DNA of 64,000 nucleotides from a virus (taxonomy: Duplodnaviria > Heunggongvirae > Uroviricota > Caudoviricetes), in the IMG/VR virus record IMGVR_UViG_3300045988_149282, positions 33,636 through 97,635 of that record; one strand, 5' to 3'. This document shows positions 3,001 to 34,064 of this stretch, one piece after another. Below the pieces are notes generated by a model that made no database searches, had not been told where the DNA came from, and worked only from the letters and a program-made list of their open reading frames with translations. The position numbers and the translations under genes were made by a program. Every line of letters starts with the position of its first letter. Within the stretch, counting starts at the first letter, position 1.

Positions 3001-6000
3001 CAATTTCTGTCGGCGGTACAAACCTGATCAAGAACTCCGGCGATATGACCGGCTGGTCGAACGTTGTCAGCGATACGTATCGTGGTAACGCGGTAATTGG
3101 CGCAACTGTAAAAGCCGGCTCCGGTTACAGGGATTTGCGGGAAATCACGCTTGAGTCGCCGGTCGATGCAGGTGAGTACGTTTACAGCTTCTATGCGAAA
3201 GGCGGTGTTGCTGGCCAGATTATGACGGCGTTCTTCTACAATCCGAACACTACAACGTCTATCGAGACCAGCCAGGGTGCGAAGGGTAACAACAGTGATG
3301 GCCGTGCGCAGTTCACGCTGACCACTTCATGGGCCCGCTATTGGGTTAAGTGGAAACAGACACCTACCACGAGTACCAAGCGCCTGATTCTGTGTCGTAT
3401 CGAGAGCAATACCTCCAAAGACCAGACGGTGTACATCAACAGTCCGAAGTTTGAGGTAGGTAACGTTGTTTCCGACTGGAACGAGTCTCCGTCTGATAGT
3501 GCCAGTGCGTCGGCTGTGGACTCGCTGACAACGAAAGTGAATCAGCAGGGCACTTCCATTAGCTCTATCGGAAATCGCACCACATCGTTGGAAAACGGGT
3601 TATCGACAGCTCAAAACAACATTGCCAAGAAGGCTGATGCTTCTGCATTGCAGGATCTCCGGAACACGGTGACATCTCAGGGTGATGATTTAACCGCGGC
3701 GAACAGCAGCATTACCAGCCTGCATGCCTCGATGAACCGTCGCACTGTGTTTACTGTCACTGCACGGGGTAATGGCAACAGCGTTACCCATGGGGTGTTT
3801 GATGAAAGCGGCAAGAATCTGTTTACCCCTGGTCGCAGCTGGGCGCTGGTCACTTTTGCAAAACACAGCGACGGATCAACGGTGATTGCGACCTCCAAAA
3901 CATACGATGTCTTTGGCAGCGCGAATAATGGCGCCACGATGTCGGCTGATATCGAGGCACTGGCCAGTGGGACTTACGTTTGCGTCCTGACATTCGATGA
4001 GCCAACTGGCAACCGAGGTAAGGTGTTGTCTGCCCTGGAATCTCTTGGTGGCACTTCCGAAGTCGTTAACTCTCTGCCGTATCGTGGCGCCTACATTCTC
4101 CTTGGCCGCAAAGGTATGAAGCCGGGCGATGGTCTGGAACTGCGTGCGCCAACCGGTGGCGACGGCACCGCCCACATTTCGACCTCAGTCGAGTTTGTGA
4201 ACGGGGTAATGATGGGGCTGGGCGCCGCTGGTGGTGTGATGATGAAGGCTGATGCGAACGCATCTGCAATTACCACGCTCCAGAATACAGTGAAGACCCA
4301 AGGGGATAATATTGACTCCCTGAGCTCCTCGACAACAGCGCTGGAAAACAGCCTTGCGTCCAGTAACGCCAGCGTGGATGCAGCAAGCCAGATCCCCGGT
4401 AACCTGATCGTAAACCCGTCTTTTGAGCGTGGTACGGAGGGCTACACTGGTTGGAGCGGTATTGCCACGGTGGCAACGCTGCAGGTTCCACATCTTGGCA
4501 CCAAAGCCGCCAAACTAGCGGCGGGTGGTTCTGCAGGCGTGGGCCAGAAGATCTCCTTCAAAAAGGATCGGTCGTACAAAATTGGTATTTGGGCAAAGCA
4601 GGACCCTAATACCACCATTCAGTCGACCGACAACACAAAATTCCGTGTGGCTGACGGTACTGGCCTGATTGCAAGTAAGGTTTATGGTCCGTTCACCTCG
4701 AACTGGCAGGAGGTGTCATGGACATGGAAGGCGACAAAGGATGTCCTTGCTGACGTTCAGTTCACTGCTTTCTTGTCAGCCGGCGCGATGTACTTTGATG
4801 ATTTTTACGTCGTCGATGTGACCGACTCAGTTGAAACTCAGGCGAACTCGAGTGCGATCACGAAGCTCGATAGTCGTGTGACCAAGACAGAGAATGACAT
4901 CACCAGCCAGGGCAGCCAGGTTACGCAACTTAAGAATGACCTTGCTACCACAAACACAAATGTTTCGAAGAAAGCGGATGCAGCTGCGTTAACGGCATTA
5001 ACGAACCGCGTCACGCAGAATGAGAAAGAAATTGGAACCCAGAGCAGCCAGACAACTTCGCTCAAAAACTCTTTGAGCACTGTTCAGGCAATGGGAAGCA
5101 ACCCGTGGTTTGATGGTTCTCTGGAGACGTACTCCGAAAACCAGCAGATCAGCGGCTCGCGCGCGGTCGTCGTCAGCTCTCAGAAACGAAGCGGAACGAA
5201 GTCGTTGCGTGTTTCCCGCGGCGCCGGTGAGGGCGGAAACAGCGATAAAACCATCGGTAAGTGGATTGCTCTGCGTGAAAATGCGGTATTCCGCATTGAA
5301 CTCTGGGCGATGATGCCGGCAGATCAGTCGCCATCATCCGGGTGGTCAACGCTCGTTGGTTTGCAGACCCAAAACGCTGCCAACAACAATAACTGGCCGA
5401 CGGCAATCACTATCAATGAAGCCGCATTGGGTGCAAGAGGCGCATGGAAGAAATTCACCGGTACGCTCCGTGTAGCCGCTGGCCACACTCGCGGCGCATT
5501 TTGGGTATCTACCCGCGGCACAACTGGCACTGGTACACCGGGGTATGATCTGTATATCGATGACGTTGTTGTCACCGATATCACCGACGCAAAAGAGGCT
5601 CAAGATTCGGCTAATTCGAACGCATCCGCGCTCACCAGCCTTACCTCACGTGTTACCAATGTAGAAGGGCAGGTGACATCCCAGGCGTCTCAGCTGTCCT
5701 CTTTGACGTCCCAGGTGAATGATGCGTCTTCGAAGGTTGATCAGATGGCGCAAACCATCACCAACAACGAGAAAACGCAGTCGTCGCTGAATACCAGCTT
5801 GCAGTCGCAAATTGATGCGCAGGCATCGGCAAACATCAAGAACCAGACGGAGTTGAATAACGCCACCACTTCGATGGCGGCAATTAAATCAACTCAGCAG
5901 ACTCAGGCCACAACGATTAGTGCACTGTCTCAGCAGCAAACGAATTTAACGGCCCAGGTAGGAGGCCAGTCAGCCGAGCTGCAGGAGCTGAAGAAAACGG

Positions 6001-8395: not shown

Positions 8396-8731
8396 ATGGA
8401 GGAAGACATGTCAAACGAGATGGCAGGCGTGACGCCAGAGCAGGTGGAGCGCATTGCCGCAATTGTTGCGCGAGAAGTCGTAGGAAAATTAAGTAAGGAG
8501 CTTCGCGATGATATTGGCCAGGAGGTCAACGATCAGCTGCGAACCTACTTTGGCGATATGACTCCGGCGCAACATAGCATTCAGCATTCCAACCTGGACA
8601 AACTTCTTAATCGGCTCGACACGATTTCAAGCGGGTTCTTTGGAGGCATTATTTCCAAGATTACCTCGTTCCTGATCACCGTGCTGCTTTTGGGTTTGGC
8701 CGCTTATGGCGTGAAAAATGGACTGCAATAA
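8396..8731 (+). CDS. putative holin-like small membrane protein
   Basis: 111 aa, single C-terminal hydrophobic helix (ITSFLITVLLLGLAAYGV); GGAGGA RBS; immediately precedes putative lysin and spanins. Confidence 0.35.
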   Translation: MEEDMSNEMAGVTPEQVERIAAIVAREVVGKLSKELRDDIGQEVNDQLRTYFGDMTPAQHSIQHSNLDKLLNRLDTISSGFFGGIISKITSFLITVLLLGLAAYGVKNGLQ

Positions 8732-8744
8732 CAGGAGAACAAGG

Positions 8745-9437
8745 ATGAGTACTCCAAGAGGCATTCGTAACAACAACCCTGGCAACCTGGATAAAGGGTC
8801 GCCGTGGCAAGGGTTAGTAAACAACCCGTCGGAACCGCGGTTCTGTACTTTTAAAGACCCCGTATGGGGGATTCGAGCACTGACAGTAACGCTCATCACC
8901 TACCATGATAAGCGCCGTGCAAAAGATGGCTCCAGCATCGATACGATCCGCGAAGTCATCGAGCGTTGGGCGCCGCCACACGAAAACAACACCGCCGCCT
9001 ATATCAATGAGGTTTCTAAAGCCGTTGGCGTGACGCCGGACATGATCATCGATCTGCATGACTACAATACTATGCGGCCGCTGGTGGAGGCGATTATTCG
9101 TCATGAGAACGGTCGTGGCCCTTTGAAAACACTCAACAGCTGGTATTCGGCCGAAGTTATTGACGAAGGTATGCGTCGCGCCGGCGTCGTTAAACCGGTA
9201 ACTGCAGTGAAAGCCGTACCTGTCACGAAAGAAACTGCAGGCGCAACGGTGACTGCAGGTATCGGTATTGCGCAGCTGGCGGACGTAATGCCGCAGATCT
9301 CCGTTGCGATGGATAAGGCCCAGGGACATATTACCAGCGGGGATACCGTTCGCATTATCTTCGGTATTGCGACCATTGTTGTCGCCGGCTTTATTGCCTG
9401 GTCGCAAGTTCGTAAGCATCAGGCAGGAGTGGTGTAA
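8745..9437 (+). CDS. putative endolysin / cell-wall hydrolase with C-terminal membrane anchor
   Basis: Start chosen at ATG 8745 behind AGGAG RBS (track ORF starts at 8718); conserved GIRNNNPGN motif near N-terminus; C-terminal hydrophobic helix; position between holin-like gene and spanins. Confidence 0.35.
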   Translation: MSTPRGIRNNNPGNLDKGSPWQGLVNNPSEPRFCTFKDPVWGIRALTVTLITYHDKRRAKDGSSIDTIREVIERWAPPHENNTAAYINEVSKAVGVTPDMIIDLHDYNTMRPLVEAIIRHENGRGPLKTLNSWYSAEVIDEGMRRAGVVKPVTAVKAVPVTKETAGATVTAGIGIAQLADVMPQISVAMDKAQGHITSGDTVRIIFGIATIVVAGFIAWSQVRKHQAGVV

Positions 9438-9439
9438 CC

Positions 9440-9691
9440 ATGAACGGCAGCCTGCTTTCAAAGGTCAAATCGACCATCATGACTTTGGCTGCCGTCTTCT
9501 CTGTGCTCGTTGGGGCGTACACCTGGGGTGGACGTGCTGCCCGGCGGGCCATGGAAGAAAAGGCGCAGAGAGAAACCAACAAACGGCTTCAAGGCACAGT
9601 GGATGTGAAAAATGAGACGATTAATGAAGTCAGGACTAAGGATGCTTCTGCCGTTCATCGCGAGCTTCGCGATAAGTGGATGCGTGATTAA
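9440..9691 (+). CDS. i-spanin (Rz-like)
   Basis: 83 aa, N-terminal TM helix followed by charged coiled-coil region; o-spanin gene overlaps its 3-prime end in another frame. Confidence 0.55.
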   Translation: MNGSLLSKVKSTIMTLAAVFSVLVGAYTWGGRAARRAMEEKAQRETNKRLQGTVDVKNETINEVRTKDASAVHRELRDKWMRD

Positions 9692-9839
9692 ACCCCAGAC
9701 CGTGGGCGTACAATTCTGCGATGGGGCTAACCCTATCTACATCAGCAAGGACGACGCCCTGACAGAAGAAACTGAGAGGGAAATCCTGATCCACAACACG
9801 CTGGGTGAGCGAATCTGTGATTGGGGGAAAGGTACATAA
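9612..9839 (+). CDS. o-spanin (Rz1-like outer-membrane lipoprotein)
   Basis: 75 aa, signal peptide with lipobox FAISGC; overlaps i-spanin gene out of frame, the classic Rz/Rz1 arrangement. Confidence 0.55.
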   Translation: MRRLMKSGLRMLLPFIASFAISGCVIKPQTVGVQFCDGANPIYISKDDALTEETEREILIHNTLGERICDWGKGT

Positions 9840-9851
9840 GGAACTGACGTA

Positions 9852-9890
9852 AGATGCGCTTGCGTTGATGTGAGGCGCATCTGTTTCTTC
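9852..9890 (+). terminator. rho-independent terminator after lysis cassette
   Basis: Hairpin agatgcgc...gcgcatct followed by T-rich tract. Confidence 0.5.
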
Positions 9891-10080
9891 TATCTGTAAT
9901 CGAGTAAATGCCGTCATCCAAGTTCACCGAACTTGATTATTCTTCACCGAACTTCACTCAAGGTAATCTTGAATCATCCTGCTTAATGATGTAGATTTAA
10001 CCAACAGCTGACGATGTCGTCAGCCGTTAGACCTGAAAAGGTGCCGCAATGACACTTGTGTTAACGGCTAAGGTGGATAT

Positions 10081-10500
10081 ATGCTAAATTATCATGACAA
10101 TACGCGTTCTATGCAGACGATCCGCACCAATACTGCGGTTATCGACAGCTTTCCTATGCGTATTCACAACAGTGAAGACGCAGTAGAAGTGCGACGTATG
10201 TTGTGCCGTGAATCAGCTAACCGCCAGCACTTCATCGTCACTTTTAAGAGCGATGTGGCGCGTGCCGAAAAGATCTCTAATTCTACGTCACTGGTTAAAC
10301 CGTTGGCCGAGGTTGTCACTAACGGTAAACGAACCTCTTTTGTTTTAGATGTTGCTGAACAATATCCTGACTTGAAGTGTTTAGATCGTGATATTTCTTC
10401 ACGAATCAAACAAGTTGTAGAGTCTTTTATGAAGAAATTCTGTAAAATCGATGATATGGAACCATCAACGGCACAGAATACTTCATGGCACCATCTCTAA
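10081..10500 (+). CDS. hypothetical protein (cargo cassette gene 1)
   Basis: 139 aa ORF, no recognisable motif; overlaps next gene by 16 nt. Confidence 0.4.
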   Translation: MLNYHDNTRSMQTIRTNTAVIDSFPMRIHNSEDAVEVRRMLCRESANRQHFIVTFKSDVARAEKISNSTSLVKPLAEVVTNGKRTSFVLDVAEQYPDLKCLDRDISSRIKQVVESFMKKFCKIDDMEPSTAQNTSWHHL

Positions 10501-11258
10501 TTGGTCAGGCGAACAGATTAATCCCTGAAATAGAAGACTACAGCAAGGTCTTGTCTGAAATGCCGAGAGCGACGAGAATTATCGCTCTCGGTGAGTTCTA
10601 TTTTATCTCCCGAGGTTTCGATCTAATTCGATTTACCGAATACGAGCTTGTTGATTCGGCCTATGAACGCTGTATTGTTGGCGAGTGTCTTGAGTCATGT
10701 GATCCTGATTACCAAGAGCAGGAAGTTAAGCGACTCAAACGTGCTGGTTACACACCTCTTGAGATAGGAGCAGAAATTGAATCCTACAAGTTGCATGTGG
10801 GGCAGCCAGTCCAAACAGTCTTCCGCGTGGCCTACTGCGAGTTTCCAATCAAGGATAAATCTGGAGTAAAAGTCAGCGCCAAGCAGATTAGAGGGGTTTT
10901 TACTCATGCTGATTATATGGGATTAGGCATCGCAAGTTTTGCTTACCTTTATCTCGTAGATAAGTATCAGTACTTGGTTTGCGATACGTTACAGACGGTA
11001 AAAGGCGCAACTCTTTGGGCTGTGAGTATGCGCAAACATGGACTGGTCGAAATTTACGATACGAAGAACGAAAATTTTATAGAGGAATTGGGTGAGGATG
11101 CCTGTGGCGTAAGTGGTTTTATTCCGTGGGATATCGGTAAGTCTGACGGAGGCCAGATGCGAAGACGTGAAGAGTGGGGGACTAATAAAATCAATCTCAC
11201 CCCAGGTGCTTGTACTCATATAGTGAACATTCTGAGTAAACGATCTATGAATCAATAA
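10485..11258 (+). CDS. hypothetical protein (cargo cassette gene 2)
   Basis: 257 aa ORF, translationally coupled to the upstream gene, followed by a strong terminator; no recognisable motif. Confidence 0.45.
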   Translation: MAPSLIGQANRLIPEIEDYSKVLSEMPRATRIIALGEFYFISRGFDLIRFTEYELVDSAYERCIVGECLESCDPDYQEQEVKRLKRAGYTPLEIGAEIESYKLHVGQPVQTVFRVAYCEFPIKDKSGVKVSAKQIRGVFTHADYMGLGIASFAYLYLVDKYQYLVCDTLQTVKGATLWAVSMRKHGLVEIYDTKNENFIEELGEDACGVSGFIPWDIGKSDGGQMRRREEWGTNKINLTPGACTHIVNILSKRSMNQ

Positions 11259-11283
11259 ACCCGCTACGGCGGGTTTTTTGTTA
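11259..11283 (+). terminator. rho-independent terminator
   Basis: cccgctacggcggg hairpin followed by TTTTTTG. Confidence 0.7.
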
Positions 11284-12486: not shown

Positions 12487-13254
12487 TTATGCCGCGCTAA
12501 CACTATGTTCAGTCCTAACCACCCCAACCTTCACAAAAGGGCTACCGTAGCTTGGTGGCTTCTTGATTAATTTGCCTACATACAGTTTTCTAATATGCTC
12601 ATCGGCTATTCTGCCAACAAATTCATAACGTTTTGTGTCGGGGCCAAGAGCTATATCCCTTGTAAAGTACTGCTGAGAACCGGCTTTGACCCAGCATTCA
12701 ATCTGATAAACTTCCATTATCAGCCCACCATATGTAGCGTAGGCATATTTGAGATTCTCGTCTCTTGGAACCTTTGCCCATACGCCACGCGTAGCTTCAT
12801 ATAATGCCAGAGCGGACATTCCTGACTTGTAGGTGCTGTTTAGCAGGAAGGCAAGACCGGCGTGCTCAGGAGCAATTTCAGTTTCCTCTTGCAGCACTAA
12901 GTGATGGTAGGCGTCCAGTGATATTCTGCCCATCATGGAACCACTTCCTCGTACCTTATTCGTAAGCTCTCCGACCCCCATAAGGTCGATGCATGTCGCC
13001 TCAACAAGTTTGGCTGTGGTTTCATCCATACCATGACGAAGTATATCTATGCCTAATTTTTTATTAGCCAAAAGTTCTTTGATCCGCATGGATTTGGGAG
13101 AGTCATCGGGATACTTGATGTGATCGAGACAACGAGTCGATTTGCCTTTTCCTATGTAAAACGGTCTTTTCATCTTGTCTTCTGTATCATAGAGACAGTA
13201 AACATAGTATTTAGCCTTATCCAATGATCTCGCGTATACCGATAAATCGTCCAT
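12487..13254 (-). CDS. GIY-YIG nuclease-domain protein (free-standing; homing-endonuclease-like or defence nuclease)
   Basis: 255 aa; N-terminal YVYCLYD...PFYIGKGK...R...H matches the GIY-YIG catalytic motif; unrecognised C-terminal domain; only minus-strand gene in this block. Confidence 0.55.
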   Translation of the reverse strand: MDDLSVYARSLDKAKYYVYCLYDTEDKMKRPFYIGKGKSTRCLDHIKYPDDSPKSMRIKELLANKKLGIDILRHGMDETTAKLVEATCIDLMGVGELTNKVRGSGSMMGRISLDAYHHLVLQEETEIAPEHAGLAFLLNSTYKSGMSALALYEATRGVWAKVPRDENLKYAYATYGGLIMEVYQIECWVKAGSQQYFTRDIALGPDTKRYEFVGRIADEHIRKLYVGKLIKKPPSYGSPFVKVGVVRTEHSVSAA

Positions 13255-33500: not shown

Positions 33501-34064
33501 CGTCCGTTTGAGATGAACCCCAAACGTTCGGCTGAAATTAACGTACTCATGACGCGGATGGCGGCTGAAATGGGCTTAGGTGATGAACTAATCCGCCCCA
33601 GCATTGGTATTAAGCCGAAAATCATGATCATTCTGGACAATGCGAACGGCAATGATGCTCGAACCGGTTACTTTATGGAGAACGGATACGACGACTTTAA
33701 GGCCAAGCTATTGACGGCTGGAGATTTACGCATGGGCGATCTCTATGTCACAGGTGTTTGCAAGAAGGTTAAAGACAAAGAAAAAGACTACACCAAAGAC
33801 GAGATCGGCCAGTTCACCGACTTTATGCGTGAAGAGATCAATCTGGTGCGTCCGACCTATGTGCTGACGTGTGGCAGCCGGGCAACTTCATTGTTTAACA
33901 ACAAAAACAAGCCATCCGATTTGGTCGGCAGGAAGGAGTATCTTCCAGACCTTGACGTTACTGTCTTTTACGGGTTTAACCCCAACATTCTTTACTTCAG
34001 ACCTGAAGAGGGAGAACGACTAGAAGCGATATTAACCGACGTAGCAGAAACTATTAAGTCGTGA
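30546..34064 (+). CDS. dnaE: DNA polymerase III alpha subunit (DnaE-like)
   Basis: 1172 aa; N-terminal PHP domain, conserved polymerase core motif GPGRGSSAGSLVAWCIGITNVDP and catalytic PDADLDF. Confidence 0.8.
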   Translation: MKALMVRTDFSLGESALKAENAVKIAREAGYTAVISADSMNIASVIPLQRAAGDDMAVICGVKLNIVDDPTYEHRVKLAKESMRCMESLERGRNYSFTALIKNEQGYRDICELMTVANTREQFYFVPRLSLEQLVSTYAKGNIILLTSDIDSVFQRNDFAKITSSLITAGGKDNFYSVVYPHPTPFYDQINVRAMKVASALKIEPVAFYPAYYESIDDADIKDIAHMVTNNIKIDQPHRLRIPHQRDNAINGRRHLLEALKAFSIRMDVPVTAAMASTTQDTIIDACTWRWHELPPALPKMADDEPATLMKLAVAGLRKRLTTKEFGYTPPASENRVYVERLKYEMDTLTRLGFCGYFLMVRDLMNHSRETGIPVGPGRGSSAGSLVAWCIGITNVDPIRHGLLFERFINPERLDLPDADLDFSQARRHEVIEYLNERYGEDYVAGIPNFTYLGAASALRDTARIYGVESADMAVSKELKNVEDDSLPLEELREQLASLDKYATKYPDAFNAACKLQSLMRGFGRHAAGMIVAGVPLTERTPVERRGDARCIAFDKRYCEAMGLIKLDVLGLATLDLLDSAKRYIKENTGEDINLDAISLEDRKVLDGFAAGYTQGVFQLESGPMRKLLKDLGGGIEPMSFKTVVATTALFRPGPIQSGMLDDYVSVAKGFMTPESLHPVLDELTAETNGVILYQEQTMNATRLLAGFTMAEADGVRKAIGKKDMEKMKSMGEKFIVQAQAGWIDVELEDGTTQRIHRAEHFKCEDGTLKTVEEALEYGAKLPINAVRVTASHPGLSEMKAKEIWTAFEKNGAYQFNKSHSVAYSLISYQSMWLKIHYPAEFFAAALTILGEDKHQGLVKDALTYGIRVLPPDVNVSSNRIEIRTLEDGSQVLYAPFSAVKGCSENGCQAIMRAREKVGGKFESLAQFEEAVEKRACNSRVRESLQKVGAFASIEPGSLPATDPERLRDQAELMGNLVIDAVKASRPFEMNPKRSAEINVLMTRMAAEMGLGDELIRPSIGIKPKIMIILDNANGNDARTGYFMENGYDDFKAKLLTAGDLRMGDLYVTGVCKKVKDKEKDYTKDEIGQFTDFMREEINLVRPTYVLTCGSRATSLFNNKNKPSDLVGRKEYLPDLDVTVFYGFNPNILYFRPEEGERLEAILTDVAETIKS

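Follow-up and report, generated by a model that had tools for sequence, protein, structure and literature searches.

Among the described systems closest to the locus reported here are the GNAT/DUF1778 type II toxin-antitoxin systems TacAT, AtaRT, KacAT, and GmvAT, in which an upstream partner gene overlaps, or is coupled to, the gene for the GNAT. A GNAT encoded by a mobile element can also act from a single small gene without an obligate partner, as does the anti-CRISPR protein AcrVA5, which acetylates Cas12a. In com-mom of phage Mu, which closes the late region, a small upstream gene overlaps a gene for a GNAT-fold protein. Expression of this potentially harmful product is controlled via RNA structure, and Mom carries a basic C-terminal region (PMC7261163). 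GNATs are further found in phage polyvalent proteins, where they have been assigned as RimI-like protein-modifying enzymes (Iyer et al. 2017, PMC5512222). Two-gene GNAT modules are already known. Here we describe a two-gene cassette, orfA and orfB (proteins A and B), in a 64,000-nucleotide stretch of the IMG/VR virus record IMGVR_UViG_3300045988_149282 (positions 33,636 to 97,635 of that record; hereafter the window), which derives from an SSU5-like Escherichia coli phage-plasmid. We tentatively read the pair as a toxin-antitoxin-like addiction or exclusion module, in which B would be an acetylating effector and A its cognate inhibitor.

The A-B locus shares the coupled upstream partner of the TacAT/AtaRT-type systems, but A has no RHH/DUF1778 domain and is predicted to adopt a GNAT-like half-fold instead. 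B exceeds the GNATs of those systems by ~80 residues, is acidic where they are basic, and has no match among the Pfam GNAT models, and the long covarying RNA leader of the A-B module is new in comparison with them. The layout also resembles com-mom: in both, the gene for a GNAT-fold protein closes a late region and is overlapped by a smaller gene before it. Homology to com-mom is undetectable, however; A is twice the size of Com and lacks its zinc-finger cysteines, the structured RNA lies 5′ of A rather than at the start of B, and B lacks the basic DNA-binding tail of Mom. With the GNATs of polyvalent proteins, B shares the signature ..D..QT..G..lW.. and the association with phages, yet it is encoded as a separate protein, in a transcription unit of its own together with a dedicated partner, whereas those GNATs are domains within large injected proteins. 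AcrVA5 and B are both mobile-element GNATs; no sequence or context link between them was found here, and B has an obligate partner. Finally, like prophage "morons" and the phd-doc locus of phage P1, the cassette has its own (putative) promoter and a terminator, lies between functional modules near plasmid-maintenance genes, and is variably present. Its protein families are unrelated to those of phd-doc, and an addiction role for A-B is a proposal of this analysis. In the libraries and literature searched, we found no description of the A partner, the stand-alone B clade of GNATs, or the dedicated covarying leader.

The cassette consists of a putative promoter and a structured leader, followed by orfA, orfB, and a terminator (Table 1). 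A preliminary description of the window had proposed two translationally coupled ORFs (open reading frames) of 139 and 257 aa in a terminator-bounded unit. Both ORFs are indeed present, and both are real genes: intact homologous pairs occur at more than 40 loci, with dN/dS ratios of 0.02-0.27 within allele classes. The start of orfB lies 16 nt inside orfA without a Shine-Dalgarno sequence before it, which is consistent with translational coupling. Across alleles the two genes either overlap by 16 nt or have abutting stop and start codons, and in the enterobacterial ones orfB again lacks a Shine-Dalgarno sequence. The downstream terminator is strong (8-bp stem at 11257-11276 plus T run, -15.8 kcal/mol, z = -4.1, 0 of 200 shuffles as good), and because the identical terminator sequence trails many divergent alleles, it marks the conserved right boundary of the cassette. 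The upstream hairpin at 9852-9882 is weaker (fold -16 kcal/mol, z = -2.2, 7 of 200 shuffles fold as well) and is best called terminator-like. It ends the lysis operon 3′ of an Rz1-like ORF (9612-9839) and is part of the phage-plasmid backbone rather than of the mobile module.

The gap before orfA measures ~190 nt from the upstream hairpin and 241 nt from the Rz1-like stop at 9839. The preliminary description gave the former length and called the region non-coding; it is not an empty stretch but holds a conserved promoter-like element and the structured leader. Phage-plasmids, the Pectobacterium chromosome, and Rouxiella all conserve, 5′ of the pair, an GTAGATTT element (-10 TAGATT) preceded at 17 nt by a TTGnnn hexamer, and from this conservation we infer that the module carries its own putative sigma70-like promoter. 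A threshold scan did not call this promoter because the window copy fits just 8 of 12 consensus positions.

Table 1 Features of the A-B cassette and of related or alternative genes. Positions are those of the window unless a locus is named.
Feature	Position	Strand	Details
Left insulator hairpin and U-rich tail	9852-9894	+	Hairpin 9852-9882, then UGUUUCUUCU; listed as terminator-like
Putative sigma70 promoter	9969-9997	+	-35 TTGAAT 9969-9974, 17-nt spacer, -10 TAGATT 9992-9997
Structured 5′ leader	10007-10080	+	P1 hairpin 10007-10024; P3 ACCU-GAAA-AGGU 10031-10042; P4 two-part hairpin 10043-10068
Shine-Dalgarno sequence of orfA	10070-10076	+	AAGGTGG, invariant; directly 3′ of leader hairpins
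orfA	10081-10500	+	139 aa, ATG start
orfB	10485-11258	+	257 aa, ATG start
Module terminator (intrinsic)	11257-11283	+	AAACCCGC-TACG-GCGGGTTT, then T run; overlaps orfB stop codon
Solo A-family genes	L073-L076, 3342-3692 and 4001-4354	- and +, respectively	No B homologue in the 8-kb loci
HHH_2 gene	L047 (K. pneumoniae pNH25.3), 1845-2366	Opposite	173 aa, unrelated to A-B; lysis-parA slot; also in 152 other plasmids

The two genes travel together. A lies directly 5′ of B at 39 of the 40 loci fetched via B, the exception being a B fragment, and no full-length B without A was seen among the loci examined; A is an obligate partner of B. Distant metagenomic relatives retain the same A-B order, the same charge asymmetry, and the N-terminal motif of B; a basic A is paired with an acidic B throughout the alleles, even very remote ones. 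A itself can stand alone. Some P1-like phage-plasmids (L073-L076) carry two solo A-family genes per plasmid, flanking hot. The occurrence of solo A without full-length solo B is the asymmetry expected of an antitoxin and its toxin. The plus-strand solo gene is 74% identical to the N-terminal two-thirds of window A and occupies the place where phage P1 has lxr on the other strand. We considered whether this gene is Lxr itself and rejected the identification, as lxr of P1 lies on the other strand and encodes 190 aa. The solo A-like genes are alternative occupants of that variable P1-like region.

PLSDB contains B homologues in 374 records (112 of them Acinetobacter plasmids) and A homologues in 370, all annotated "hypothetical". 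The genetic contexts are varied. The pair is present on 111-kb Acinetobacter plasmids, near a tail-sheath gene in Rouxiella, next to the integrase of a small integrative element at smpB, beside lepA at another locus, and, in decayed form, adjacent to the int gene of a lambdoid phage. A second decayed pair lies in a chromosomal island of Sodalis sp. with Fic, SymE-toxin, RHH, and transposase genes (L077, 5992-6691), where A is frameshifted and B reduced to a fragment. Most telling are the Pectobacterium chromosomes, in which the pair is solitary: it occupies the rsmI-ygiD and the tldD-aaeR intervals, and the vicinity holds no other genes of mobile elements. These copies are intact and under purifying selection (dN/dS 0.1-0.2).

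Comparison of closely related plasmids showed that alleles are swapped as cassettes. Plasmid CP083502 and the window are 99% identical over 400 nt upstream and 800 nt downstream of the module, while A is 19-36% and B 30% identical; the crossover points fall in the P4 loop of the leader and in the common terminator. The conserved leader and terminator therefore serve as crossover ends between near-identical plasmids. SSU5 and the window form a mosaic with a breakpoint inside A, the N-terminal part of A being 83% identical, its C-terminal part 35%, and B 36%. This mosaic prompted the idea that the C-terminal half of A co-evolves with B, which was dropped because, across all pairs, B co-varied with the C-terminal half at a Spearman coefficient of 0.47 versus 0.65 for the N-terminal half. 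Rapid evolution under positive selection was likewise not supported, given dN/dS of 0.02-0.27 within classes and saturated dS between them. The sequence comparisons suggest instead that allelic diversity comes from old lineages combined with cassette exchange. A 3′ terminator and presence or absence among close relatives, two of the marks of a moron, are both found here, and we regard the region, with its putative promoter, as an autonomous, horizontally exchanged element of that kind.

Curated libraries offered little help with the proteins. Neither window protein matched a Pfam, NCBIfam, or PADLOC family (PADLOC-DB 2.0, none at E <= 1), protein-family scans with all 26 members of each of the two families gave nothing useful, and sequence-profile searches of the PDB with A and B returned chance matches only. 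Window B had no Pfam match at E <= 1, Acetyltransf_1 being touched by one of the 26 family members (E = 0.16), and its NCBIfam scan gave no resistance-family match. A and B are nonetheless members of PHROG 2594 and 3307, both of unknown function. The earlier remark that neither protein matched a recognizable family is corrected by this PHROG membership and by the predicted fold of B. Homology to a structural or lysis protein, on which the assignment as cargo would have foundered, was looked for and not found.

The predicted structure of B has a mixed β-sheet and the β4-α3-β5-α4 core of the GNAT fold, the core spanning approximately residues 110-205. On the strength of this model, B is a divergent GNAT-fold acyl-CoA N-acyltransferase. 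Its top structural matches are protein N-terminal acetyltransferases; AtaT and TacT proteins are also among its structural neighbors, as are aminoglycoside, arylalkylamine, and streptothricin acetyltransferases. The invariant residues of B, among them Q134, D167, Q170, T171, and Y191, fall in the GNAT core, and the β4-α3 junction reads ..YMGLGIA.. in window B and KGLA or KAMA in other alleles. The family is small, its profile recovering only 75 cluster representatives among 1.84 billion proteins. The weakest of these matches cover positions 116-190 (β4-α3-β5-α4) and belong to proteins that are Pfam GNATs, so the sequence link is indirect, as it is the family profile and not the window protein that matches Pfam-positive GNATs. 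The nearest relatives outside the family are GNAT domains of phage polyvalent proteins (E = 1e-7 to 1e-3, motif A/B region). Some of these are phage proteins of 1400-1900 aa with several GNAT copies and a ParB-type nuclease; one relative is part of a 1472-aa phage protein that contains a ParB_N domain and multiple GNAT domains, and another is two genes away from an ART-PolyVal gene.

B is acidic (isoelectric point (pI) 5.5 in the window, 4.8-5.9 over all alleles) and begins with the peptide MAPSLI, which is conserved in the family as M-[AS]-P-[ST]-[LF]-I and disordered in the model. Because it is conserved with or without the orfA overlap, and is disordered, this peptide is taken to be a functional motif at the protein level. 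The B homologue of SSU5 (L002, 4255-5004) has the conserved MAPSLI start at locus position 4255, with a 16-nt overlap with SSU5_031 as in the window. Judged by this alignment of starts, the annotated SSU5_032 start (locus position 4303) probably lies 48 nt too far downstream.

A is small and basic (pI 8.5 in the window, mostly ~9 in other alleles). It is predicted to have an α/β fold like the N-terminal half of a GNAT domain, without the cofactor loop, followed by a long C-terminal helix and a disordered tail. A Foldseek search of viral structures with this model gave nothing significant. Homology between A and B was considered and rejected (hhalign probability 0.1%). The N-terminal region of A contains the invariant polar or basic residues R9, Q12, T13, R15, T18, and R38; the alignment shows a variable N-terminus, no invariant lysine, and no conserved cysteines.

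Across alleles, orfA is preceded by a leader of 80-120 nt with hairpins P1, P2, P3, and P4, ending in the invariant GGCUAAGGUGGA. Hairpin P2 (GCUACG-CAUACU-CGUAGC) is conserved in most other alleles and is missing from the window allele, whose leader has a minimum free energy of -27.5 kcal/mol (z = -2.9). The hairpins were predicted independently in 15 alleles, each in most of them. After covariance-model realignment, 88% of the alignment cells are paired, as compared to 28-54% in slid controls. Both sides have changed in 12 of 20 pairs and none of 500 shuffles reaches this, counts that lean towards structure because the alignment is fitted to the covariance model. Consensus folding from MAFFT alone under-called the structure because the loops were misaligned. 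The covariance model (R1) matches window positions 10007-10083 (E = 4.6e-11) and gives one match per locus, directly 5′ of orfA, in 39 sources.

The leader also predicts the genes that follow it. A search of IMG/VR with the leader pattern alone returned 25 contigs, with A and B downstream in every contig that has enough sequence; among the 24 new contigs, the pair is present in all but one, which has too little downstream sequence. No leader was found in a plasmid with alternative cargo in the same slot. Rfam searches with the window and two loci with a full-length leader gave only chance-level matches (E > 0.4), lying outside or across the leader. These results lend good support to the leader as a candidate new cis-regulatory RNA motif, exclusive to the A-B module. 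The P1 hairpin was considered as an A-specific operator; this is unlikely, as the window and L001 share an identical P1, within an identical leader, and have very different A proteins. In one locus (L031, 5450-5620), the P4 part of the leader is tandemly duplicated, GGAGAGGCCAATG[T/C]GGCCCAC[G/A]GC occurring twice, and because of this duplication the covariance-model match lies ~60 nt 5′ of the orfA start.

Plasmid NZ_CP019283.1 matches the cassette region with 100% identity, and pECOH89 matches it with 99.8% identity from position 10040 onward. On its 5′ side lie a tail-fiber gene with a Peptidase_S74 domain and holin, endolysin, and spanin genes, the lysis roles being assigned from the syntenic genes annotated in SSU5. 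The holin-like and endolysin-like genes (8718-9437 and 8396-8731) had no Pfam match at E <= 0.01; their roles come from this synteny only. On the 3′ side are genes for a ParA-type ATPase and a small ParB-like protein. The flanks had been labeled structural and lysis genes on one side and plasmid maintenance on the other, and these labels hold. The interval is also a site for accessory cargo, as had been supposed: a divergent A/B allele sits between flanks that are 99% identical, and in 153 of 658 related plasmids, most of them Klebsiella plasmids, the place of A-B is taken by an unrelated helix-hairpin-helix gene in reverse orientation.

Two further observations concern the same backbone. A second variable cargo slot lies directly past parAB and holds a LEM-3-like GIY-YIG protein in the window (12487-13254, minus strand); relatives have a DUF2971 protein or a large P-loop NTPase there (compare L001 6588-7307, L005 5697-7391, and L047 3680-4399). 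Two copies of the 12-mer TTCACCGAACTT, at 9923-9934 and 9943-9954 (within 9919-9954), lie just 5′ of the putative cassette promoter. The first copy sits within the palindrome CAAGTTCACCGAACTTG, and other backbones have TTCACTCA repeats at that place. The TTCACCGAACTT repeat region may be a regulator-binding site of the phage-plasmid backbone.

Several of these lines of evidence lead us to favor, tentatively, a toxin-antitoxin-like role. The pair forms a promoter-to-terminator unit in which B is never found without A, A can occur alone, and coupling favors A. It survives as a solitary chromosomal module under purifying selection, occupies varied cargo slots, and shows deep allelic diversity. 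In addition, the relatives of B outside its family are conflict-related GNATs, and AtaT and TacT are among its structural neighbors. In such a mechanism, the pair would be active in the plasmid-prophage state as a toxin-antitoxin, addiction, or exclusion module. B, as the effector, would use acetyl-CoA to acetylate a protein of the cell or of an invading element. A would be made first and in excess through translational coupling, would bind B, and would keep it inactive; the leader would set mRNA stability and translation of A, and hence the A:B ratio. Loss of A upon plasmid loss, or its displacement during infection, would then release B.

A number of observations weigh against this role. An acidic B with a basic A is the reverse of typical type II pairs and of the tRNA-acetylating GNAT toxins, and these reversed charges imply that the target of B is probably not tRNA. 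A has no RHH/DUF1778 domain or other DNA-binding domain recognizable with Pfam or NCBIfam, which would make it an atypical antitoxin for a GNAT system. The leader shared by the window and L001 leaves no allele-specific operator and argues against classical allele-specific autorepression. The cofactor-loop glycines of B (motif A, Q/R-x-x-G-x-G/A) are only partly conserved, leaving catalytic competence uncertain. Co-variation of A and B is not distinctive, the C-terminal half of A tracking B no better than the N-terminal half, and neither protein matches a known defense family in PADLOC-DB 2.0. A more specific proposal, which we regard as rather doubtful, is that the pair represents a new two-protein class of conflict or addiction systems, in which a stand-alone GNAT of the polyvalent clade would be held in check by a pseudo-GNAT (A), the dedicated four-hairpin leader, not described before, would gate expression, and deeply diverged alleles, swapped at the conserved leader and terminator, would set specificity between competing phage-plasmids or between host and phage.

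Other roles can be drawn from the same data. Unlikely, in our assessment, is a counter-defense or host-takeover enzyme, B acetylating a host defense or housekeeping protein on behalf of the phage-plasmid with A as adaptor, chaperone, or specificity subunit; AcrVA5 with its target Cas12a would be one parallel, and the role proposed for the GNAT domains of injected polyvalent proteins another. Several results would suit it: the outside relatives of B are GNAT domains in or beside phage polyvalent and ART-PolyVal proteins, its top structural matches act on protein N-termini, its acidity makes proteins more likely targets than nucleic acids, and the slot is a cargo site of a phage genome. Yet the Pectobacterium chromosomes retain intact, selected copies with no mobile element to protect, the putative promoter is of a constitutive sigma70 type and insulated from the late operon, and B is not part of a virion or injected protein. 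The preliminary description had offered accessory or anti-defense cargo as a typical occupant of this position; we retain the former and consider the latter the less likely variant because intact, selected pairs sit alone among Pectobacterium housekeeping genes. The charges could also be read as reversed roles by analogy with type VII-like systems, A being a growth inhibitor or nucleic-acid binder that B neutralizes or tunes by acetylation, much as Pat acetylates Alba and MntA modifies HepT. An enzymatic antitoxin is needed in catalytic amounts only, which would fit weaker coupled translation of B, and the invariant residues R9, Q12, T13, R15, T18, and R38 of basic A could form a nucleic-acid-binding site. 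We consider this improbable: solo A genes without B in P1-like plasmids are awkward for a toxin, and with a variable N-terminus and no invariant lysine, A offers no obvious conserved acetyl acceptor.

The presence of acetyltransferases for aminoglycosides, streptothricin, and arylalkylamines among the structural neighbors of B raises a less probable role still, acetylation of a small molecule to confer resistance or immunity against an antibiotic, a microcin, or a toxic metabolite, with A as an accessory subunit. Solitary chromosomal copies would fit such a host-benefit trait, but resistance GNATs are normally single genes and B has an obligate partner; deep allelic diversity, cassette swapping, and mobile-element or integrase-proximal contexts are atypical of resistance genes, and NCBIfam gave no resistance match. 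Viewed as an operon, the module resembles the immI leader-RNA/icd/ant operon of phage P1 in its promoter, structured leader, small gene overlapping a larger one, and terminator. By that analogy the leader and coupled genes would set heteroimmunity in the control of lysogeny, B acting like an antirepressor, and alleles that are hypervariable between near-identical phage-plasmids would be in keeping with it. Such control is nevertheless very improbable, as the module stands alone in chromosomes and in unrelated element types without a common repressor, 153 related plasmids manage without it, and an enzyme fold is unusual for an antirepressor. Least probable of the explanations considered is a Mom-like activity, by which B would evade restriction by attaching an acetyl-CoA-derived group to DNA or RNA, with A controlling its expression in the manner of Com. 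The parallel with the com-mom layout is its support. Against it, hhalign gave probabilities of 0.2% for B versus Mom and 0.3% for A versus Com, B is acidic and without the basic C-terminal region, and neither the cysteine content of A nor the position of the structured RNA before A corresponds to com-mom.

Phage-plasmids of the SSU5 type are frequent in clinical E. coli, Klebsiella, Salmonella, Shigella, and Enterobacter, some of them with resistance genes, and phage resistance has been reported for one such phage-plasmid (PMC8969562). The standing of the leader as a candidate new cis-regulatory RNA is independent of the function of the two proteins. If the toxin-antitoxin-like addiction or exclusion role holds true, the A-B module would help explain plasmid stability, competition between plasmids, and the phage resistance of the plasmid reported in PMC8969562. 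It would also add to the toxin-antitoxin and defense repertoire a GNAT system whose partner is not of the RHH type and whose target is probably not tRNA.

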